Source: Escherichia phage Dru_SM1. Taken from it: DNA of 60,633 bases. The stretch lies in sequence record PP596835.1; one strand, written 5' to 3'. Below are positions 26,103-53,562 of the stretch, piece by piece. Position 1 is the stretch's first letter; each line of letters begins with the position of its first letter. A program made the position numbers and the translations under genes. The notes under the pieces are model-generated. The model did no database searches. It saw only the letters and a program-made list of their open reading frames with translations, and was not told the DNA's origin.

Positions 26103-28088
26103 TTAGGCGTATCCCATGTCTTCGAGATACTTCTCTGCTTTAGCTATATAAGAATCATAATCTATGTCGTCCGGTATTTTATCCGGTAGCGTCATGATCG
26201 GGACACCTCCCGCGCTACCAGCTACACGGTTGCCCGAGTTAGCATAGATTATTTCAGGTGTTTCTTCATTAGTGCTTAAGTACCAGCGTACAACCTTACC
26301 CAAAAATTCGCCATTCCATACCGCGCCGCCTTTTACCGCACGTAGGATAATGAATTTTCTAATATCGTTGCAATTGCGTATAGTACGAGAAACAGGCGTA
26401 CCGTGGGCCAAACATTCACATACAGCTTCCATAATGATCTCACCAGTACAGTTCTTTTGAAGACCTGTCTTGGCAAACCAGCCTTTACGCTTGATTTCAA
26501 CATTTCCTTCCTCGTCAGGTTCTTTTACTGCAACATAGTTATTGACGTTAGCACTGTACAGCTTGTCATAGTAGTTGGATTCCATTTCAAAACCTGTTAC
26601 GGATTCCCACCACTTAATCATGTTATCAACGAAATCCTGCATATGGTCTGGATACTTAACCACAATACCATCCGTGTTAGCTGAGATTACTTTAACACCA
26701 TTCAACTCAAATGCCTCAATAAGCATCAACAGTGAAAGCTGTCCGGTTAATGTAACTTGTATCAATAATTGCGGAGCGTACAGTACGGACCACATAGACC
26801 CCAGCTTACCAAACGATCCGTTGATAACGATCTTCAGCGTGTTGGCTGTGTTCTTGTCCCCTGAGTGCTTAGCTGCAATACGACGATCTACAATACTCTT
26901 ATAAACACGAAGGAACGCTGGTCCCAACTGTTCTGGATATAAGCCCTGATTAAGAATGATTGAAGGATAATAAGACGTTACGTCAATGTCCCGCTTTTTG
27001 ATACCAGGCTCTTTACCGTGACCAGCACACTCTTCGGAGCTATGCAAACCACCAATACCCATACGGTAGACACCGTCCGCAATCTTGATCTCAAGACCTG
27101 TTAATGCAGGAGGTAAGCTGATACCACCGTTATCGCTAACAATAAAGCGACAGTCCCGAACAATATCCAAAACACTATTCATCAAAGGAGTTTGAAAACG
27201 AATAAAGTCTGGTATGTTGTATGCATACTTTGTTCCAGGATAAACTTGCGGACGCTGTGGGCGCACTCCCGTCAACGCTTGGATTTCGTGCTTAATTACG
27301 TCTTCTGCAATCTGTGCATCTGAGCGTGAACGCAGGTCCACACCGTATTCTTGCGACATAATTTCACGCAAGTGAATAGGCTCTTGCAATGCAATAAAAC
27401 ATTCTTCCGTCTGTACAAGGTCGTTAATACAGTACCAGCGCACAATAAGCATCTGGTCTTGCGTCAACATTGTATTAGGCTTGAACGGTAAATCCTGCAT
27501 ACGACGAGTATGTACACGTCCGCCGTATTGTTTCAAACCGCCGGACCCAGGCAGCACTTCCATGATATCGATGTGGTTAACGTTCTGCATACGCTTGAGA
27601 CGGTAACTCTTTAATACATCCGAAGGACGCCAGTCTTCAACGATTATTTTATCAGTTGCGTCTTTAAGCTGAGCATTAGAGCAGCCGTTAAGCGCAAGCG
27701 TAGCAATGGGCATATCGTACCCGTTACCGTTAAAGCTTACGATAAGGAAGTTTGTCATTACCCAGTTAAGTAATAAGCAATTCAAACTACAACCGTGATA
27801 CATCTCGAAGTAGACAACTTTCTTAGTTCGCACTCCGCGAAATGCAATTAAGAAATAATTTGGATAACATTCTATATCATATACAAGCGGTTCGCGGTTA
27901 ATCCATGCTTGAATAAGTTCGTCCTGTGTGTACAGGTTGTATTGGAAGTTCCGCGCTTCCTCAAGATTAGGCAAATAATCCGGGCGCTCCCAAGTGCGTT
28001 CCGGCGGTAAACGTTTAACCTTTTCTTTCTTTGCTTTTGGCTCAGGCGGTAAGTCCTGCCAAAAGAAACCAATAGCATCTGTCCGCAT
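26103..28088 (-). CDS. DNA polymerase, family B
   Basis: Exo I motif YDIECY, motif A DVTSYYPSII, motif B KIVINGSFGKLG, NTDG near C-terminus; start set to ATG 28088, which overlaps the upstream stop (TAATG). Confidence 0.8.
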   Translation of the reverse strand: MRTDAIGFFWQDLPPEPKAKKEKVKRLPPERTWERPDYLPNLEEARNFQYNLYTQDELIQAWINREPLVYDIECYPNYFLIAFRGVRTKKVVYFEMYHGCSLNCLLLNWVMTNFLIVSFNGNGYDMPIATLALNGCSNAQLKDATDKIIVEDWRPSDVLKSYRLKRMQNVNHIDIMEVLPGSGGLKQYGGRVHTRRMQDLPFKPNTMLTQDQMLIVRWYCINDLVQTEECFIALQEPIHLREIMSQEYGVDLRSRSDAQIAEDVIKHEIQALTGVRPQRPQVYPGTKYAYNIPDFIRFQTPLMNSVLDIVRDCRFIVSDNGGISLPPALTGLEIKIADGVYRMGIGGLHSSEECAGHGKEPGIKKRDIDVTSYYPSIILNQGLYPEQLGPAFLRVYKSIVDRRIAAKHSGDKNTANTLKIVINGSFGKLGSMWSVLYAPQLLIQVTLTGQLSLLMLIEAFELNGVKVISANTDGIVVKYPDHMQDFVDNMIKWWESVTGFEMESNYYDKLYSANVNNYVAVKEPDEEGNVEIKRKGWFAKTGLQKNCTGEIIMEAVCECLAHGTPVSRTIRNCNDIRKFIILRAVKGGAVWNGEFLGKVVRWYLSTNEETPEIIYANSGNRVAGSAGGVPIMTLPDKIPDDIDYDSYIAKAEKYLEDMGYA

Positions 28089-29041: not shown

Positions 29042-29268
29042 TAGCGATCCTCGATTGCTCTAATTGTGGTTAAATCTAATTCGCAGGTTGGAGGGTATCC
29101 ATAAAGTCCCATTTGTTTTCCTTGTGCATTAAACCATGTACCTGACGGATCCTGCCACTGCTTAGGTGTCTTGTGGAGAAATACTACTCTGTTTTCACCG
29201 TAATAATTAATTCTTACTCCTGTGTGAGTATATTTACGTTTACCTTTTGGTCTTCTTAAGTTGGCCAT
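29041..29268 (-). CDS. hypothetical protein
   Basis: 75-aa basic ORF overlapping neighbours. Confidence 0.4.
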   Translation of the reverse strand: MANLRRPKGKRKYTHTGVRINYYGENRVVFLHKTPKQWQDPSGTWFNAQGKQMGLYGYPPTCELDLTTIRAIEDR

Positions 29269-30188
29269 CAGAACAACTCCATTACACGATCACGGAATGT
29301 GCCGTCATGGGTGGCGTTAATGTTTGCAGCAATTACACCATACGCCCATAAGTTGAAGGCAGCACGTGATTCATAGATTGTTGATAAACGTTCGTAAGTG
29401 AAACCGTTTTGCTCAAGGTATTTAAGGACAGCATCCTGTTCAATTTCAGTTAATGTTGAAACATGCTTACCAAAATGATGGCGGTCCGGTGACTTATCTG
29501 ATACGCGCATTGGTCCCCACGGAGGAGTAACCACACTTCCAAACGCTGCCGCTTGAATCCAGGAGGATGAGTCACAGCTATACCACGGATAACGCTCCAT
29601 AATGGTTGTTGACGTAATACCAAACGCATGAAGTTTAATCTTAGCACGCCCGCTACCGTCGCAAATATATTTGTCCCACATGCGGTCAAGCCAAGTTTTA
29701 AGCGTGTCCGTTGAACGCCCTACCATGCCCCCGATGGTGATGTATTCGTAGTTCTTCATGTAGTATTCAAGATAGCGGAAGTCCTCCCCGAAGTGGAAGC
29801 AGGGTAACGGTTTAGCACCGCGTGCTTCCATTTCAAGCTGGTTACGGTAGGTTTGCAACGGATCACCGATACCATCGAGCACCGACGCCATTACTGCACC
29901 ATCTTCTACGCGAAGGATGTCTTTGTTGCGCTTAATGTATTCGCAGTATTCAACAATATCAATGTGAGCACCCAAAGAGTGCGCGGAGAATGCGCCGGAG
30001 TCGAGAAACACTTTAGCCCCGTCCGCACGCATCTGATCAACATACTTTTGACGTCCAACGTAGTGGTATGATTCCAAAATATGGGGCAGATTGCGCGTGA
30101 TATTTTTCTCATGCTCGGATAGCTTTTCGTAACGCTGCTGTCCAGGCATATAACCGTTCGTGTAAACTGCTGCCATAAAAACGTTCAT
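29268..30188 (-). CDS. dpdA: DpdA-like DNA transglycosylase (tRNA-guanine transglycosylase homologue)
   Basis: 306-aa ORF; TGT-like region (KVFLDSGAFSAHSLG), ~300-aa size, and position next to folE/queD/queC/queE. Confidence 0.6.
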   Translation of the reverse strand: MNVFMAAVYTNGYMPGQQRYEKLSEHEKNITRNLPHILESYHYVGRQKYVDQMRADGAKVFLDSGAFSAHSLGAHIDIVEYCEYIKRNKDILRVEDGAVMASVLDGIGDPLQTYRNQLEMEARGAKPLPCFHFGEDFRYLEYYMKNYEYITIGGMVGRSTDTLKTWLDRMWDKYICDGSGRAKIKLHAFGITSTTIMERYPWYSCDSSSWIQAAAFGSVVTPPWGPMRVSDKSPDRHHFGKHVSTLTEIEQDAVLKYLEQNGFTYERLSTIYESRAAFNLWAYGVIAANINATHDGTFRDRVMELF

Positions 30189-33387: not shown

Positions 33388-33592
33388 TTACTTCACCTTT
33401 AATATCGCAAGGGTTAATTGTTACGTTAGACATTACAATTGGATGATTGCGCGCTCCAATTGTACTAACGTGATTAATATCCAATTCTACATGCACGCCC
33501 TGCATAGTAGCGTGAGCAATTGAAGAATTAAGTTTTTCTACCAGCTCAGTGATCATTTCCTGATGCTGTTTCGCTTCTTCCAAAGTGACCAT
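33380..33592 (-). CDS. hypothetical protein
   Basis: 70-aa ORF overlapping neighbours. Confidence 0.35.
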   Translation of the reverse strand: MVTLEEAKQHQEMITELVEKLNSSIAHATMQGVHVELDINHVSTIGARNHPIVMSNVTINPCDIKGEVNE

Positions 33593-34299
33593 TATTCCAC
33601 CCCGATATATTTGTGAACCTGAAGCTGCAACGTGTAACCGTGTTTCATACAGCTTTGGACAACGGCTTGGATATTACTGTGGTTAAGGTCTTCATCCTGC
33701 TCGTCCATTGGCTGTAAATATATCTTACCCTTGAAACCCTTCGGAGGTCTAGCGATAAATGGCGTAGCTTGATGATCTAATGCTTGAAGAGGTAAACCGT
33801 CTTCCACGTTTACACAGCACGCTTTAAGTACATATTTAAATGCATTAGCGCGGTACAGCACAGAAGGATGAATCTTTGAAGTCTTGGGACTACATACAAT
33901 CACAGGTAACTGGGAAAAGTTCTTAGGTAAAGGCATAGACCCATTAGTTTCAATTTGCACCAAATAGCCCCGCGATAACAGTTGTTCAATGAAGGGGTTA
34001 ATTTGCTGACGGAACGGTTCACCCCCAGTGATAACCACAAGTGAGGTGCTATTGCCCGATTCCAGCTTACGGCTTTCGATTAAACGCATAATATCAACGA
34101 TATGATAAAGGCTACGACCAACAGTATAATCTGTATCACAGCCAGGACATTGCAGGTTACACCCAGCAAGACGCACAAATACAGCAGGTTGACCGCAGAA
34201 TGGACCTTCACCCTGAATGGTAGAGAATACCGAATGCACGTCTAAATACATATCGTTTTCTTTAGAACGGGACTCGGGAGCTTGTTGATTAATATTCAT
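33592..34299 (-). CDS. queE: 7-carboxy-7-deazaguanine synthase (radical SAM)
   Basis: 235-aa ORF; QueE-type motifs (TIQGEGPFCGQPAVFVRLAGCNLQCPGCDT); AGAGGA RBS. Confidence 0.8.
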   Translation of the reverse strand: MNINQQAPESRSKENDMYLDVHSVFSTIQGEGPFCGQPAVFVRLAGCNLQCPGCDTDYTVGRSLYHIVDIMRLIESRKLESGNSTSLVVITGGEPFRQQINPFIEQLLSRGYLVQIETNGSMPLPKNFSQLPVIVCSPKTSKIHPSVLYRANAFKYVLKACCVNVEDGLPLQALDHQATPFIARPPKGFKGKIYLQPMDEQDEDLNHSNIQAVVQSCMKHGYTLQLQVHKYIGVE

Positions 34300-34311: not shown

Positions 34312-34343
34312 AGTGAAAAAGAAAGCGCCTCATTGGGCGCTTT
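34312..34343 (-). terminator. rho-independent terminator (leftward)
   Basis: hairpin AAAGCGCC-TCATTG-GGCGCTTT followed on the minus strand by a T-run (rc of GTGAAAAAG); lies between the Ala/Lys-rich gene and queE. Confidence 0.5.
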
Positions 34344-34368
34344 CATTATAACGTGATATGTTTTGATA

Positions 34369-35169
34369 TTACAAGCCGTTCAGGGCTTCCGGTACTGGTA
34401 CAGGTACGCGACCAGTCACACCATTAAATTTCTTCCAGCGTGCATACTGGGTTTTAACGGTATCTTCGTTCAGACCATGTCGACCAGCCAGGTTCAGAAC
34501 ATAAGAGATCGGAGCAGGCTGACCCAGCGTAGCGCTAATGTGGTCCATCAGAGCCCAGGCACGACCGCAGGAAGTTTCCGGTTGCGGACGACGAACACCG
34601 TTCTGTTCCGGCATACGATTAGCTTCTTTTTCTTTCTCGCGGAGCTCTTTAGCGCGCGCTTTTTCCGCTTCTTTTTCTGCCTGTTTTGCAGCACGGATCT
34701 TGTCTTTGAAGCCTTTAATAGTAGCTTCCAGACCATCCACCAGGCCCTGAGCAGAAGTTACAGCACCGGACAGGTCTTCACCTTTAGACTTCTTAACAAC
34801 AGCTTTCAGCTCTTTCAGAGCTTCTTTAATGGTCTTCAGGTTTGCAGATCCCTGAGTTTCTGCTTCCGTGATTTGTTCAACAGTGCTTTCGTCGGTGACG
34901 GTAGCCAAAGAGTTTTTCAGAATTTCAGCAGCGTTAGCAATCGCATTAAATTTGTTTTCCGCTTCAGCGCGGATTTCAGCTTGTTTCTTTTCAGCGGCAG
35001 CTTTTTTCTCTGCTTCTTTTTTCTCTTTTGCTACGCGTGCAGCTTCAGCAGCAGCGGCTTTCTTAGCTTCTGCGTCATTCACAGTAGCTTCTTTCTTTGC
35101 AGGTTTAGCAGATTTTGCAGCGGCAGCGGCGGCTGCAGCAGCAGCTTTTTTGTCTTCAATGTTGCTCAT
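34369..35169 (-). CDS. Ala/Lys-rich protein (histone H1-like low-complexity region; possible DNA-binding protein)
   Basis: 266 aa from ATG 35169; N-terminal ~200 aa are Ala/Lys/Glu repeats (KKAAAAAAAAAAKSAKPAKKEA..., AKEKKEAEKKAAAEKK), C-terminal ~70 aa non-repetitive. Confidence 0.5.
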   Translation of the reverse strand: MSNIEDKKAAAAAAAAAAKSAKPAKKEATVNDAEAKKAAAAEAARVAKEKKEAEKKAAAEKKQAEIRAEAENKFNAIANAAEILKNSLATVTDESTVEQITEAETQGSANLKTIKEALKELKAVVKKSKGEDLSGAVTSAQGLVDGLEATIKGFKDKIRAAKQAEKEAEKARAKELREKEKEANRMPEQNGVRRPQPETSCGRAWALMDHISATLGQPAPISYVLNLAGRHGLNEDTVKTQYARWKKFNGVTGRVPVPVPEALNGL

Positions 35170-35295
35170 TCTCTTCACTCCGAATTGTTATGGGTTCGTT
35201 TGTTACCAACGGGTTAAATGTACCAAAGGATTTTGTGACACGCAACCCCTTATCTGAACATTTTTAAAAATATTTTTGATCAAGCTTAGAACTTA

Positions 35296-35790
35296 CTAGC
35301 TCTTTGCCCCTCTTCCCGGCGTCCATGCAGCTTGCAATGCGGGTTGTTCACAAACGACCCGGGCACCGGAAATAATACCACCCTCCCGTTCAGCATCGTA
35401 TTTGACACGGGCAGGTTTCCAAAGTCCTTCATCCATTGACGGAACGTATTGCCCAATTTGAGGTGAGCAAAAGCCTTGGATATCGTATTCCACACAGAAT
35501 TCGGCTTGTGCGCTGATTTGGGCGTGATCCAGGATTGTTTCTGGAAGTTGCGTAAAGTAATCAAACAAAATGCGCTCAACGATTTCCCGTTCATAAGGTG
35601 CAGCTCCTAAATTTTCTGTCAAGTTAATATAAAGCATTTGAAGATCAACATCTTCAAGATCATGTAAATTGTCTACTGGTGTTACCAGTGTCGACTCAGG
35701 GCAACAAATAATTCCAAGTTGGTGTAGTGTCAGCCAATTGGGATGCTTTGCCAAGAGTTCAAATTTATCTGTATCAATTAGGACGTACAT
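35296..35790 (-). CDS. hypothetical protein
   Basis: likely start ATG 35790 with AGGGGA RBS; acidic. Confidence 0.4.
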   Translation of the reverse strand: MYVLIDTDKFELLAKHPNWLTLHQLGIICCPESTLVTPVDNLHDLEDVDLQMLYINLTENLGAAPYEREIVERILFDYFTQLPETILDHAQISAQAEFCVEYDIQGFCSPQIGQYVPSMDEGLWKPARVKYDAEREGGIISGARVVCEQPALQAAWTPGRGAKS

Positions 35791-38801: not shown

Positions 38802-39689
38802 TTACTGCTGCCACGGCGGGACTGCTGCTTGTGCCGGATGCGGTTCAGCTTGCTGCTGCGGCTGAGCTTGCTGCTGAGGTGCTGCTGCCTGGCCAGGCTG
38901 TGCTACCTGCTGCGCCCACGGCTGCTGAGCTGCTTCCGGTGCTACTGGCTGTTGTACTGGAGCTTGCTGCACTGGCTGCTGTGGTGCTGCGTTTTGAGCA
39001 GGATTATCCCACGGCTGCGGTGCGGCATTCTGCCACGGTTGTGCTGCTGCGCCCTGCTGTGGTGCTGGTTGCTGCTGCACAGGCTGCTGAACTGGCTGCT
39101 GTTGCTGCACCGGAGCTTGCTGCTGTACAGGCGCTTGCTGTTGCTGAGCAAACGGGTTAGCTGCTGGTTGCTGCGGTGCTGCGCCCGGGAAAGCTGGCTG
39201 CTGAGCTGGCGCACCTGCACCGAACGGGTTAGCTACTGCTGCTTGAGTACCCATTGCTGGAGCACCTGCTTCTTTTTCTGCATACTTAACCGGATCGTTG
39301 ATGTTAGCATAACCGTTAGGCTCGTTGCTGTCTTCATAACCTTCCTGAGAACGAACTTTCAGACGCAGGTTCAGCGGAATGTTATGCAGTTGAGCAGGAG
39401 TATCCCAGCGAATTACGCCAACCGCATGGGAAAGCGCGCCCAGTTGCTCGTAAGCGATACGCACGGTATCTTCGTTATCGTTGATAACGTTATAACGAGC
39501 GAAGATTTTACGGCCTTTAGCAAAACCATCAATGATGCTAAACGTTACCTGGATTGCCATACCGCCATTTTTGGTCGGTTTGAATTCAGATGCTTCAATT
39601 ACTGCTTTATACCAACCTTTCGGCAATGCGCCGTAAGAAGGTGCTTGATAGCTGCTCGCGTCAAAGTGGAAATTAGTTGGCATAGTCAT
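38802..39689 (-). CDS. putative ssDNA-binding protein with Gln/Pro/Ala-rich C-terminal tail
   Basis: 295-aa ORF; N-terminal ~130-aa globular region then low-complexity Q/P/A repeats; sits next to Sak4-like ATPase. Confidence 0.4.
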   Translation of the reverse strand: MTMPTNFHFDASSYQAPSYGALPKGWYKAVIEASEFKPTKNGGMAIQVTFSIIDGFAKGRKIFARYNVINDNEDTVRIAYEQLGALSHAVGVIRWDTPAQLHNIPLNLRLKVRSQEGYEDSNEPNGYANINDPVKYAEKEAGAPAMGTQAAVANPFGAGAPAQQPAFPGAAPQQPAANPFAQQQQAPVQQQAPVQQQQPVQQPVQQQPAPQQGAAAQPWQNAAPQPWDNPAQNAAPQQPVQQAPVQQPVAPEAAQQPWAQQVAQPGQAAAPQQQAQPQQQAEPHPAQAAVPPWQQ

Positions 39690-44481: not shown

Positions 44482-44959
44482 GATTTGCAAATTCCTTATG
44501 TAATTCCAATCTTTTAGTTCTAACCCAAGCTTTAGCAGCTTGCAAACCTTCAGGTGTAAGTTCAAAATATTTTGATACCAAAACACCTTTTACATGTAAG
44601 TTCGCATAATAGACTTGAATGCCATTATGTTTTGTAATAGTTACGCACTTAACACCAGTCTTTGAATCTTTACGAATAACCATATTATAATTGTTCTGTG
44701 AACGATCAGCTAGTCTAAGATTTTCTATTCTGTTATCATCTCGAACTCCGTTAATATGATCAATTATCTTGTCTTCAGGAATATCACCATTGAAGTATTG
44801 CCATATTAACCTGTGAGCGAAATAAAATCTCTTATCAATTTTACCTTGAATGTAACCGTCCTGACGTTTTGTACCAAATGGTCTTTTATTATAACCGTTT
44901 TTATTTCTTTGAAATAATTTGCCATCTATATAAATAAAGCGATCGTTTACATTGATCAT
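44447..44959 (-). CDS. HNH homing endonuclease
   Basis: HNH motif DHINGVRDDNRIENLRL; start likely ATG 44959 (MINVNDRF); 3' end overlaps the downstream nuclease gene. Confidence 0.7.
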   Translation of the reverse strand: MINVNDRFIYIDGKLFQRNKNGYNKRPFGTKRQDGYIQGKIDKRFYFAHRLIWQYFNGDIPEDKIIDHINGVRDDNRIENLRLADRSQNNYNMVIRKDSKTGVKCVTITKHNGIQVYYANLHVKGVLVSKYFELTPEGLQAAKAWVRTKRLELHKEFANHGQHTAKRSES

Positions 44960-52005: not shown

Positions 52006-52620
52006 TCAAGCATCTAAACCATTATATTTGCGCCAGGCGTAGAACTGAATGGCTACCGTTGTTCCGTTGTAAGAAGGCATTGCTGCTTTCATTTCTTTCA
52101 GCTCCGGCGTGCGGCCCAGTTCCTTCAGAAGCTTGTCACCCATTGCCCACACTTCGGCAGTTTTTCCTTTGAGCGGCTTGCGAGCGCCATTTTTGAAATC
52201 GCAGCGAGCAGTTTTTACATCCTGTTTTGGCGCGGCAGCTTTTGGCTCTTCAATTTTGATTTCAGAAACCTGCGTGGCAGCTTTTGCATGTTTCATATCT
52301 TTCTCTTCCTCCTGCTCCAAAGCTTCGAGGCAGCTTTTGACAATTTCCGGATTTACCATCGGGCGCAGTACCGAGACGCTGGAAGCTGGCGCGGCGGTCG
52401 GTGCCGGGACTTTCTGCTCCGGCTGTTGCGCTTTTTTATGGTCGCGCAGTACCTGAAGCACTTCCTTCTCGACGATGTAAAAACCAATCTCGTCCTGATG
52501 GATTAACTGTTCGTGTGCGTCGCGTGCAACCTGACCCCAGCGAGTCTTAAGGGCACGGCGTGCATTCGTTTTCATGGTGTAGCGCATTTTGTCCTGTTCG
52601 CGGTGAGTTACTTTAGACAT
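52006..52620 (-). CDS. hypothetical protein
   Basis: ORF 52006-52665; likely start ATG 52620 with AAAGGAG RBS; Ala/Pro/Lys-rich central linker. Confidence 0.45.
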   Translation of the reverse strand: MSKVTHREQDKMRYTMKTNARRALKTRWGQVARDAHEQLIHQDEIGFYIVEKEVLQVLRDHKKAQQPEQKVPAPTAAPASSVSVLRPMVNPEIVKSCLEALEQEEEKDMKHAKAATQVSEIKIEEPKAAAPKQDVKTARCDFKNGARKPLKGKTAEVWAMGDKLLKELGRTPELKEMKAAMPSYNGTTVAIQFYAWRKYNGLDA

Positions 52621-53510: not shown

Positions 53511-53562
53511 CGCGAGCCCATGCACTTTACAAAATATTTTTATAAAAAGTGCAAAAAGGTGT

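Follow-up and report, generated by a model that had tools for sequence, protein, structure and literature searches.

ORF49 of Escherichia phage Dru_SM1: a predicted helical stalk with a conserved C-terminal domain and a possible role in organising phage DNA

The window analysed here is the whole 60,633-nucleotide stretch of Escherichia phage Dru_SM1 (sequence record PP596835.1), and the gene in question is ORF49, a minus-strand open reading frame (ORF) just upstream of queE. Going by modelled structure, codon usage and published deletion data, its product is probably a rod-like helical body with a winged-helix-type head, intracellular, abundant and essential. We tentatively read this protein as an organiser of phage DNA inside the infected cell, with a putative DNA-binding activity. 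A sequence-only reading of the same DNA had proposed an Ala/Lys-rich, histone H1-like protein that coats, packages or protects modified DNA. The 266-aa frame on which it was built is sound, with an ATG start and a GGAG ribosome-binding site. The nearest relatives of the region are WildeMaa (97.5% identity) and CAjan and Seurat (92%), all of the genus Seuratvirus, subfamily Queuovirinae. Annotated counterparts of ORF49 are AJT60531.1 in CAjan and bas23_0048 in WildeMaa, and the phrog_11298 profile matches residues 15-266 at E 1.9e-111, PHROG 11298 being a family of unknown function. The parts of the gene are as follows.

34369..35169, minus strand: ORF49 coding sequence, ATG start, 266 aa plus stop (ORF call and translation)
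35178..35181, minus strand: ribosome-binding site GGAG, 8 nt 5' of the ORF49 ATG (read from the sequence)
34951..35166, minus strand: aa 2-73, Ala/Lys/Glu (A/K/E) low-complexity segment with poly-Ala and the short basic stretch KSAKPAKK, predicted helices 4-19 and 32-89
34708..34950, minus strand: aa 74-154, non-repetitive helical hairpin, tip of a predicted antiparallel bundle (AlphaFold2, alignment)
34618..34707, minus strand: aa 155-184, second A/K/E-rich helical segment, running into the C-terminal domain (entropy windows, AlphaFold2)
34390..34614, minus strand: aa 186-260, conserved C-terminal domain, predicted beta-hairpin plus three helices, winged-helix-like

The ORF49 protein and its domain family

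The ORF49 product is rich in A (20.7%), K (13.5%) and E (11.7%). Its 48 basic residues (K+R) stand against 39 acidic ones (D+E), for a net charge of +9 and an isoelectric point (pI) of 9.4, with a single Pro among the first 186 aa, so the H1-like composition that had been claimed for it does not hold. The sequence-only reading had also placed about 200 of the 266 residues in A/K/E repeats. Counting as low complexity those windows with an entropy of at most 2.2 bits or an A+K+E content of at least 70%, we found such sequence confined to aa 2-73 and 155-184, about 90-100 residues, and aa 74-154 proved to be ordinary helical sequence. When the ORF49 DNA was checked for tandem repeats, none was real except the GCN run encoding poly-Ala. 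The sole stretch of the protein that looks H1-like, aa 7-26 (KKAAAAAAAAAAKSAKPAKK), is unconserved in homologues.

An AlphaFold2 model from a 59-sequence alignment had a mean predicted local distance difference test score (pLDDT) of 88.8, and 81.7 for the C-terminal domain alone. Helices are predicted at residues 4-19, 32-89, 97-127 and 134-184, the long ones with pLDDT >90, and residues from about 32 to 184 are predicted to form an elongated antiparallel stalk made up of an A/K/E polyampholyte helix and an ordinary three-helix tip. These confidently predicted helices argue against a histone H1-like identity, as does the failure of any linker-histone or Hc1 family to appear when Pfam, NCBIfam and PDB sequences were searched to E = 10. 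Fold searches with the full model returned only generic three-helix bundles from the PDB (E >0.2) and only uncharacterised proteins of the same lineage from BFVD.

Much of the stalk is free to vary. The aa 2-73 segment differs in length and sequence among homologues, and the aa 74-154 block is found only in Seuratvirus/Nonagvirus-type homologues and is missing from the alignment of short ones. Across the N-terminal regions of the 59 homologues the medians are 31% A, 20% K, 19% D+E and about 0% Pro, with a net charge of about +4, and the family as a whole is moderately basic (median pI 9.2). Four of the 59 (P0072, P0079, P0085 and P0115) open with a hydrophobic segment that resembles a signal peptide or membrane anchor, one of them with a lipobox-like LAAC, and in most of this subset the A/K/E helix follows the C-terminal-type domain instead of preceding it.

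What the homologues share is the last ~75 aa, in agreement with the non-repetitive C-terminal domain of the sequence-only reading. The consensus of this domain is MPEQNGVRRP..CG.AW..D..S...G.P..I......GLN..[TN]V[KR].[QE]YARW[RK]KF.G.TGR, with invariant N190, P195, C201, W205, Y242, W245, K247 and G253 and conserved basic and aromatic residues in RRP and YARW[RK]KF..GR. Its identity is 50-68% across phages of Escherichia, Pseudomonas, Vibrio, Alteromonas and Pantoea, in proteins 90-380 aa long that are otherwise free to vary. This argues for a common ligand such as DNA or a core phage protein. In the AlphaFold2 model the domain has the three-helix core with an associated beta-hairpin that defines winged-helix and three-helix helix-turn-helix (HTH) folds. 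Some relatives carry tandem arrays of two or three copies, as would be expected of a polymer-binding module.

The domain belongs to no curated family and is a new, lineage-specific one. Searches of Pfam, NCBIfam and PDB sequences with the full protein and with the domain alone gave only chance-level coiled-coil matches. Among 24 divergent members, 4 matched HNH_repeat (PF18780), the only recurrent Pfam hit, with a best E of 1e-3 and scores, where reported, of 14.7-16.9 bits, under the Pfam gathering threshold of 26; ORF49 itself has no HNH_repeat match. Sigma70_r4_2 was matched weakly by 3 of 35 members (best E 0.033). Using hhalign against a KfrA_N alignment that we built, domain columns 18-65 fell on KfrA residues 5-49, exactly over the HTH, at E 1.3e-3 and a probability of 19%, a profile-profile match that is suggestive, not proof. 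A candidate label of "FtrA domain/transcriptional activator" was tried and rejected, having no Pfam or NCBIfam match.

The domain profile matched 1906 cluster representatives (E<=1e-3) in a set of 1.84 billion proteins. The domain is present in 149 isolate phage records, and each one examined for taxonomy or neighbours is from Queuovirinae or a close relative with a que/dpdA cluster; among the hosts on record are Escherichia, Pseudomonas, Vibrio, Alteromonas, Pantoea, Rhizobium, Stenotrophomonas and Synechococcus. We scanned 185,579 bacterial and archaeal species, one genome each, and obtained just 8 matches, 6 of them on phage-like contigs with a que module (5 of these being 55-112 kb) and 2 on short fragments, so the family is effectively restricted to lytic phages and the same genomes offer no host homologue to learn from. 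A viral-contig scan with a two-domain relative (P0160) found nothing.

Deletion, expression and the que locus

The published gene deletions of phage PhiDruSM1 can be read onto the window for every gene, since 25 of the 26 primer halves that we tested from Table S1 of Ojima et al. match it exactly, which makes it that phage or an identical relative. The primers for ORF49 match at 34373-34392 and 35167-35201. In that study, deletion of ORF49 (listed as a "hypothetical protein"), which would remove 34393..35166, was not recovered, nor was that of 50 bp within its leader, at 35193..35242 ("PH_ORF52"). Deletions of ORF50, queE, queC, queD and folE were obtained, those of the que genes giving phages sensitive to BREX and to restriction-like systems (Ojima et al., bioRxiv 10.1101/2024.04.14.589459). 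In the same table, deletions of the DNA polymerase and processivity factor genes are listed as obtained (26103..28088 and 29268..30188 (-)) and that of dpdA is not, oddities that reflect either strain differences or noisy calls of essential and non-essential genes. In the literature on Seuratvirus and Queuovirinae proteomics, escape mutants and RNA-seq we found no study of ORF49 besides this knockout table.

ORF49 has the highest codon adaptation index (CAI) of the 89 ORFs in the window, 0.594 relative to E. coli with Sharp-Li weights, against a median of 0.288, and above the major capsid gene (0.550) and the gene of the single-strand DNA-binding (SSB)-like DUF669 protein (0.531). Its product is thus probably abundant, and this ranking fits a stoichiometric rather than a catalytic role. 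Third in codon adaptation genome-wide is the DUF669 gene, for which no deletion was obtained either. Homologues of ORF49 were undetected in purified virions of the relatives R7M (14 proteins) and Vid5 (11 proteins), so packaging in the virion is disfavoured. Of the DNA-coating protein in the sequence-only reading, the probable abundance survives, and the H1-like character and place in the virion do not.

That ORF49 lies just upstream of queE with a terminator between them is confirmed. The hairpin at 34344..34321 has a 9-bp stem (GAAAGCGCC-caatga-GGCGCTTTC) followed by TTTTT and a folding energy of -14.4 kcal/mol, and is identical in close relatives. A terminator-like hairpin stands before queE in 37 of 72 related loci, and a non-coding gap of 58-390 nt in all 72 that could be scored. 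On the other side, a gap of 126 bp precedes ORF49, unusual for so tightly packed a genome. A consensus promoter scan of this leader found no strong sigma-70 site; it holds a candidate extended -10 element, and we infer that the promoter lies there. GC skew, which switches at about 23 kb and 51 kb and not at 35 kb, gives no sign of a replication origin at the locus. The features around ORF49, with the more distant ones discussed below, are these.

35170..35295, minus strand: ORF49 leader/promoter region, 126 bp, non-coding
35217-35225: candidate extended -10, TGG-TACATT, within the ORF49 leader
35265-35280: A/T palindrome in the ORF49 leader
34313..34344, minus strand: intrinsic-terminator-like hairpin and T-run, between the ORF49 stop codon and queE
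33592..34299: queE, directly downstream of ORF49
35296..35790, minus strand: ORF50, 164 aa, phrog_7864, unknown function, upstream of ORF49, deletable in PhiDruSM1
38802..39689, minus strand: DUF669 protein, matching PHROGs annotated as single-strand DNA-binding protein
52006..52620, minus strand: ORF72, 204 aa, ending in an ORF49-type domain
52012..52194, minus strand: second copy of the domain, ORF72 aa 143-203 (hhalign, hmmsearch, PHROGs)

The A/T-rich palindrome of the leader (AAAAATATTTTT core, 35260..35281 (-)) has similar copies in the intergenic regions 53528..53545 and 44564..44575 and might act as an UP element, operator or unwinding element. Repeats of the leader that might serve as operators were sought genome-wide, and nothing recurs except this palindrome.

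The arrangement is conserved in the lineage. Of 80 viral contigs, 78 have queE beginning 58-390 nt past the ORF49-type gene (the other 2 end too soon), and the order exonuclease, helicase, variable small genes, ORF49-type gene, queE, queC, queD, folE, dpdA, clamp, polymerase is kept. Even most contigs that encode very divergent triple-domain forms keep the ORF49-type gene next to queE. The exceptions are Rhizobium phages, where the domain gene is 2 kb from queE, a Synechococcus phage, where it follows the polymerase gene, and contig L102, where three small domain-bearing genes adjoin the terminase genes.

The upstream neighbour, ORF50, is probably a functional partner. It matches the N-terminus of a fusion protein (P0094) with 28% identity over 130 aa (BLASTP, E 5e-8), and an ORF50-type domain is fused N-terminally to an A/K/E helix and the ORF49-type domain in at least six metagenomic proteins, this one and P0157, P0169, P0179, P0189 and P0191; the ORF at 2748..3344 of contig L102 is a fusion of the same kind. 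This Rosetta-stone link suggests that the two products work together.

ORF49 and ORF72 hold the sole copies of the domain in the genome by six-frame hmmsearch, in which a profile made without ORF72 matched it at E 3.6e-7. The ORF49-domain alignment finds ORF72 in hhalign with a probability of 92.5% and an E of 5e-7, and phrog_18634 and phrog_21588 are common to both proteins. ORF72, 17 kb from the que cluster, has a different N-terminal domain that recurs, by eye, in two-domain relatives (P0160, P0221). It is reported to counter BREX type I, co-expression restoring plating, and also to affect AVAST III and qatABCD, and an HHpred assignment to KfrA_N has been reported for it (Ojima et al., bioRxiv 10.1101/2024.04.14.589459).

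What ORF49 may do

The likeliest reading, though a tentative one, is that ORF49 protein would be made in large amounts inside the infected cell, where its C-terminal domain would bind phage DNA, perhaps aided by the short basic N-terminal tail. The helical stalk would serve as a spacer or oligomerisation rod, and the whole would help to arrange phage DNA under replication or transcription, as an architectural or organising factor, by analogy with plasmid KfrA or with p6 and p16.7 of phi29. Under this proposal ORF49 would be neither a capsid-packaged histone nor a part of the 7-deazaguanine pathway, despite its lineage-wide position before queE. Several points weigh against it. DNA binding is putative, and the net charge of the protein is modest. 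The signal- or anchor-like starts in 4 of the 59 homologues would fit a membrane-tethered organiser but, should those proteins be exported, would count against DNA binding. A single preprint screen is the source of the "essential" call, its authors term the classification imperfect (bioRxiv 10.1101/2024.04.14.589459), and dpdA was also scored undeletable in PhiDruSM1, though CAjan with an inactivated dpdA is viable (PMC6884629). Finally, the CAI ranking depends on the Sharp-Li weights used, with capsid, scaffold, tail and SSB-like genes ranking as expected.

The ligand of the domain might instead be a protein. ORF49 would then be an adaptor or scaffold of the replication-recombination machinery, its winged-helix-like domain docking on some conserved protein of the phage or the host (helicase, Sak4/DUF669, clamp, polymerase or RNA polymerase) with the stalk as a spacer, in the manner of the RPA32 C-terminal and MCM winged-helix domains or of RecX repeats. 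The gene always lies within the helicase-to-polymerase module, the ORF50-type fusions in several phages suggest work in a complex, and a phage partner that is itself conserved would be in keeping with the strong conservation from host to host. We nevertheless think this doubtful, given that the most codon-adapted gene of a phage is rarely an adaptor, that tandem arrays and a free-standing paralogue (ORF72) agree better with a generic ligand such as nucleic acid, and that Arg, Lys and aromatic residues abound on the conserved surface. Another reading is a sequence-specific transcription factor, an activator or repressor of middle and late genes or of the adjacent que operon, which we regard as rather unlikely. 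An HTH-like domain, the essential score, the Sigma70_r4_2 matches, the "transcriptional activator"-type annotations of homologues in the R7M, Vid5 and CA8 records, and the fact that KfrA, which ORF49 most resembles, is an autoregulator all point that way. However, the activator label has no family match behind it, regulators are usually of low abundance whereas ORF49 has the highest CAI and its own terminator, and no operator-like sequence from its leader is repeated elsewhere in the genome.

The constant company of the que genes could point to an accessory role in 7-deazaguanine modification, for example in presenting DNA to DpdA or setting the density of targets. The gene is immediately upstream of queE in nearly all viral contigs, in isolates of five host genera and in divergent triple-domain forms, nearly every genome or contig examined that has the domain also has a que/dpdA cluster, and dpdA and ORF49 are both undeletable in PhiDruSM1. 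We consider such a role improbable all the same. CAjan with an inactivated dpdA grows without any DNA modification (PMC6884629), so loss of modification cannot explain the lethality of ORF49 deletion, and in published data phage 9g's DpdA and Gat-QueC by themselves modify as much as 18% of the G in plasmids of E. coli, so ORF49 protein is not needed for the base exchange. The que genes can be deleted in PhiDruSM1 and ORF49 cannot, a terminator separates it from queE, ORF72 is far from the que cluster, and the domain is not beside queE in the Synechococcus phage and contig L102. The only match of ORF49 to a component of the Dpd/que pathway was a chance-level one to DpdI (E 2.9), and common descent of the module as a whole confounds the co-occurrence. 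The link to modified DNA in the sequence-only reading is therefore not required. Hardly more probable is a counter-defence or host-takeover protein like ORF72, essential only because the laboratory host carries its target. ORF72 has the same domain and restores plating on BREX type I, and abundant early phage proteins are often inhibitors, such as Ocr, but the host used for rebooting was a cloning strain in which no defence phenotype of ORF49 could be scored, and ORF49 is a core gene that keeps its place in phages of many hosts, whereas counter-defence genes usually have a patchy distribution.

A histone H1-like protein that coats, packages or protects modified DNA, in the virion included, is the least probable reading of all, and is largely refuted on composition. 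It could draw on the Ala/Lys-rich sequence with its KSAKPAKK stretch, the likely abundance, and a plausible DNA binding. Against it, acidic residues nearly equal basic ones in ORF49 and in the N-terminal regions of its homologues (median 20% K against 19% D+E), confident helix is predicted instead of a disordered tail, no H1 or Hc1 family is matched, and homologues are absent from two virion proteomes.

ORF49 is probably the most strongly expressed non-structural gene of the Queuovirinae, at one fixed position and reported undeletable. These are common coliphages and phages of Pseudomonas and Vibrio, and they serve as models for 7-deazaguanine modification and for defence screens. If ORF49 does organise phage DNA, it would provide a new HTH family and a component of a phage "nucleoid" in a tractable system, and its paralogue ORF72 would tie the domain to BREX evasion. 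The analysis also corrects two circulating labels, "histone H1-like" and "FtrA transcriptional activator", and separates ORF49 functionally from the que cluster that always accompanies it.

We also noted a dispersed 8-mer, TGTGGT[TC]A, in the window. The form TGTGGTTA occurs 46 times against 2.4 expected, and with the TCA variant TGTGGTCA there are 54 sites (for example 1227, 3332, 34032(-), 35890(-) and 60275(-)). They lie on both strands, about one per 1.1 kb, 48 of the 54 inside ORFs and never in frame 0. Their spacing has a coefficient of variation of 0.59, against 0.97 for random sites (0 of 2000 random sets were as even), and the largest gap is 2.6 kb. Among the related loci examined (L003-L095), 82 of 90 are enriched in the 8-mer, with at least 3 per 10 kb, in phages of Escherichia, Pseudomonas, Vibrio, Alteromonas and Pantoea and in metagenomes, and it looks like a lineage-wide functional DNA site. 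Distant relatives with divergent or multi-copy domains (L100, L086, L031, L101 and L103) are without this enrichment and over-represent other 8-mers, such as GCTTGACA in L100 (14 copies against 0.4 expected) and TGTGGGAA in L086 (10 against 0.7).

It is a long shot that the C-terminal domain of ORF49 and ORF72 reads TGTGGT[TC]A, which would give the phage a putative "chromatin" nucleated by its own sequence. If it did, ORF49 would load at regularly spaced sites and organise the replication or priming of phage DNA, and through the same sites ORF72 would protect phage DNA from BREX by shielding or marking it. The co-occurrence of domain and 8-mer is confounded by common descent, and a comparison of helix-3 residues with the TTA or TCA form of the 8-mer found no clean covariation (TTA-rich Vid5, for instance, has an "RAE" helix). 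Primase or another core protein may, speculatively, be an equally good reader, because the motif contains what we take to be priming triplets of the TGGTC/GTG type.

Comparison with known systems

The closest likeness is to KfrA of IncP plasmids such as R751, which, as predicted for ORF49, joins a small HTH-type domain to an Ala-rich, highly charged helical rod of ~100-300 residues. When the ORF49 domain is aligned to KfrA residues 5-49, the pattern [FW]A[VI]AD.L...G..P....V......T[IV]....WR is retained. The differences are considerable. The HTH is N-terminal in KfrA and C-terminal in ORF49, the rod is A/E/R-rich in R751 KfrA and A/K/E-rich in ORF49, and ORF49 has an extra beta-hairpin (QNGVRRP) before the helices. 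The Pfam KfrA_N model (PF11740) matches no member of the ORF49 family, and KfrA belongs to plasmid partition and the korA-korB regulon, whereas ORF49 sits in a lytic phage replication module. HNH_repeat (PF18780) is likewise a short, helical, tandemly repeated module with aromatic-x-x-W...G at its end, and its sub-threshold matches include P0221 and ORF72, but no HNH nuclease domain is attached to the ORF49-type domain.

Low-complexity tails of Hc1/Hc2, AlgP and mycobacterial HupB are Ala/Lys-rich, and the 20 residues of ORF49 at aa 7-26 are similar to them. Those tails are strongly basic, Pro-containing and disordered, whereas ORF49 is charge-balanced, almost free of Pro and predicted to be helical. 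Domain II of TolA and the ER-K single helices have the Ala/Lys/Glu polyampholyte composition in common with ORF49; one source labels an ORF49 homologue "membrane protein involved in colicin uptake", and a few homologues are N-terminally anchored. ORF49 itself has no transmembrane segment, and its C-terminal domain bears no relation to domain III of TolA (no Pfam match, and a different predicted fold).

The early, very abundant, non-virion phage proteins p6 and p16.7 of phi29 and TF1 of SPO1 organise replication or transcription along phage DNA. They have no sequence or fold match to ORF49, whose DNA binding is putative. In p16.7 a membrane anchor is followed by a coiled coil and a C-terminal helical DNA-binding domain, a layout that resembles the ORF49 homologues with an N-terminal hydrophobic segment.

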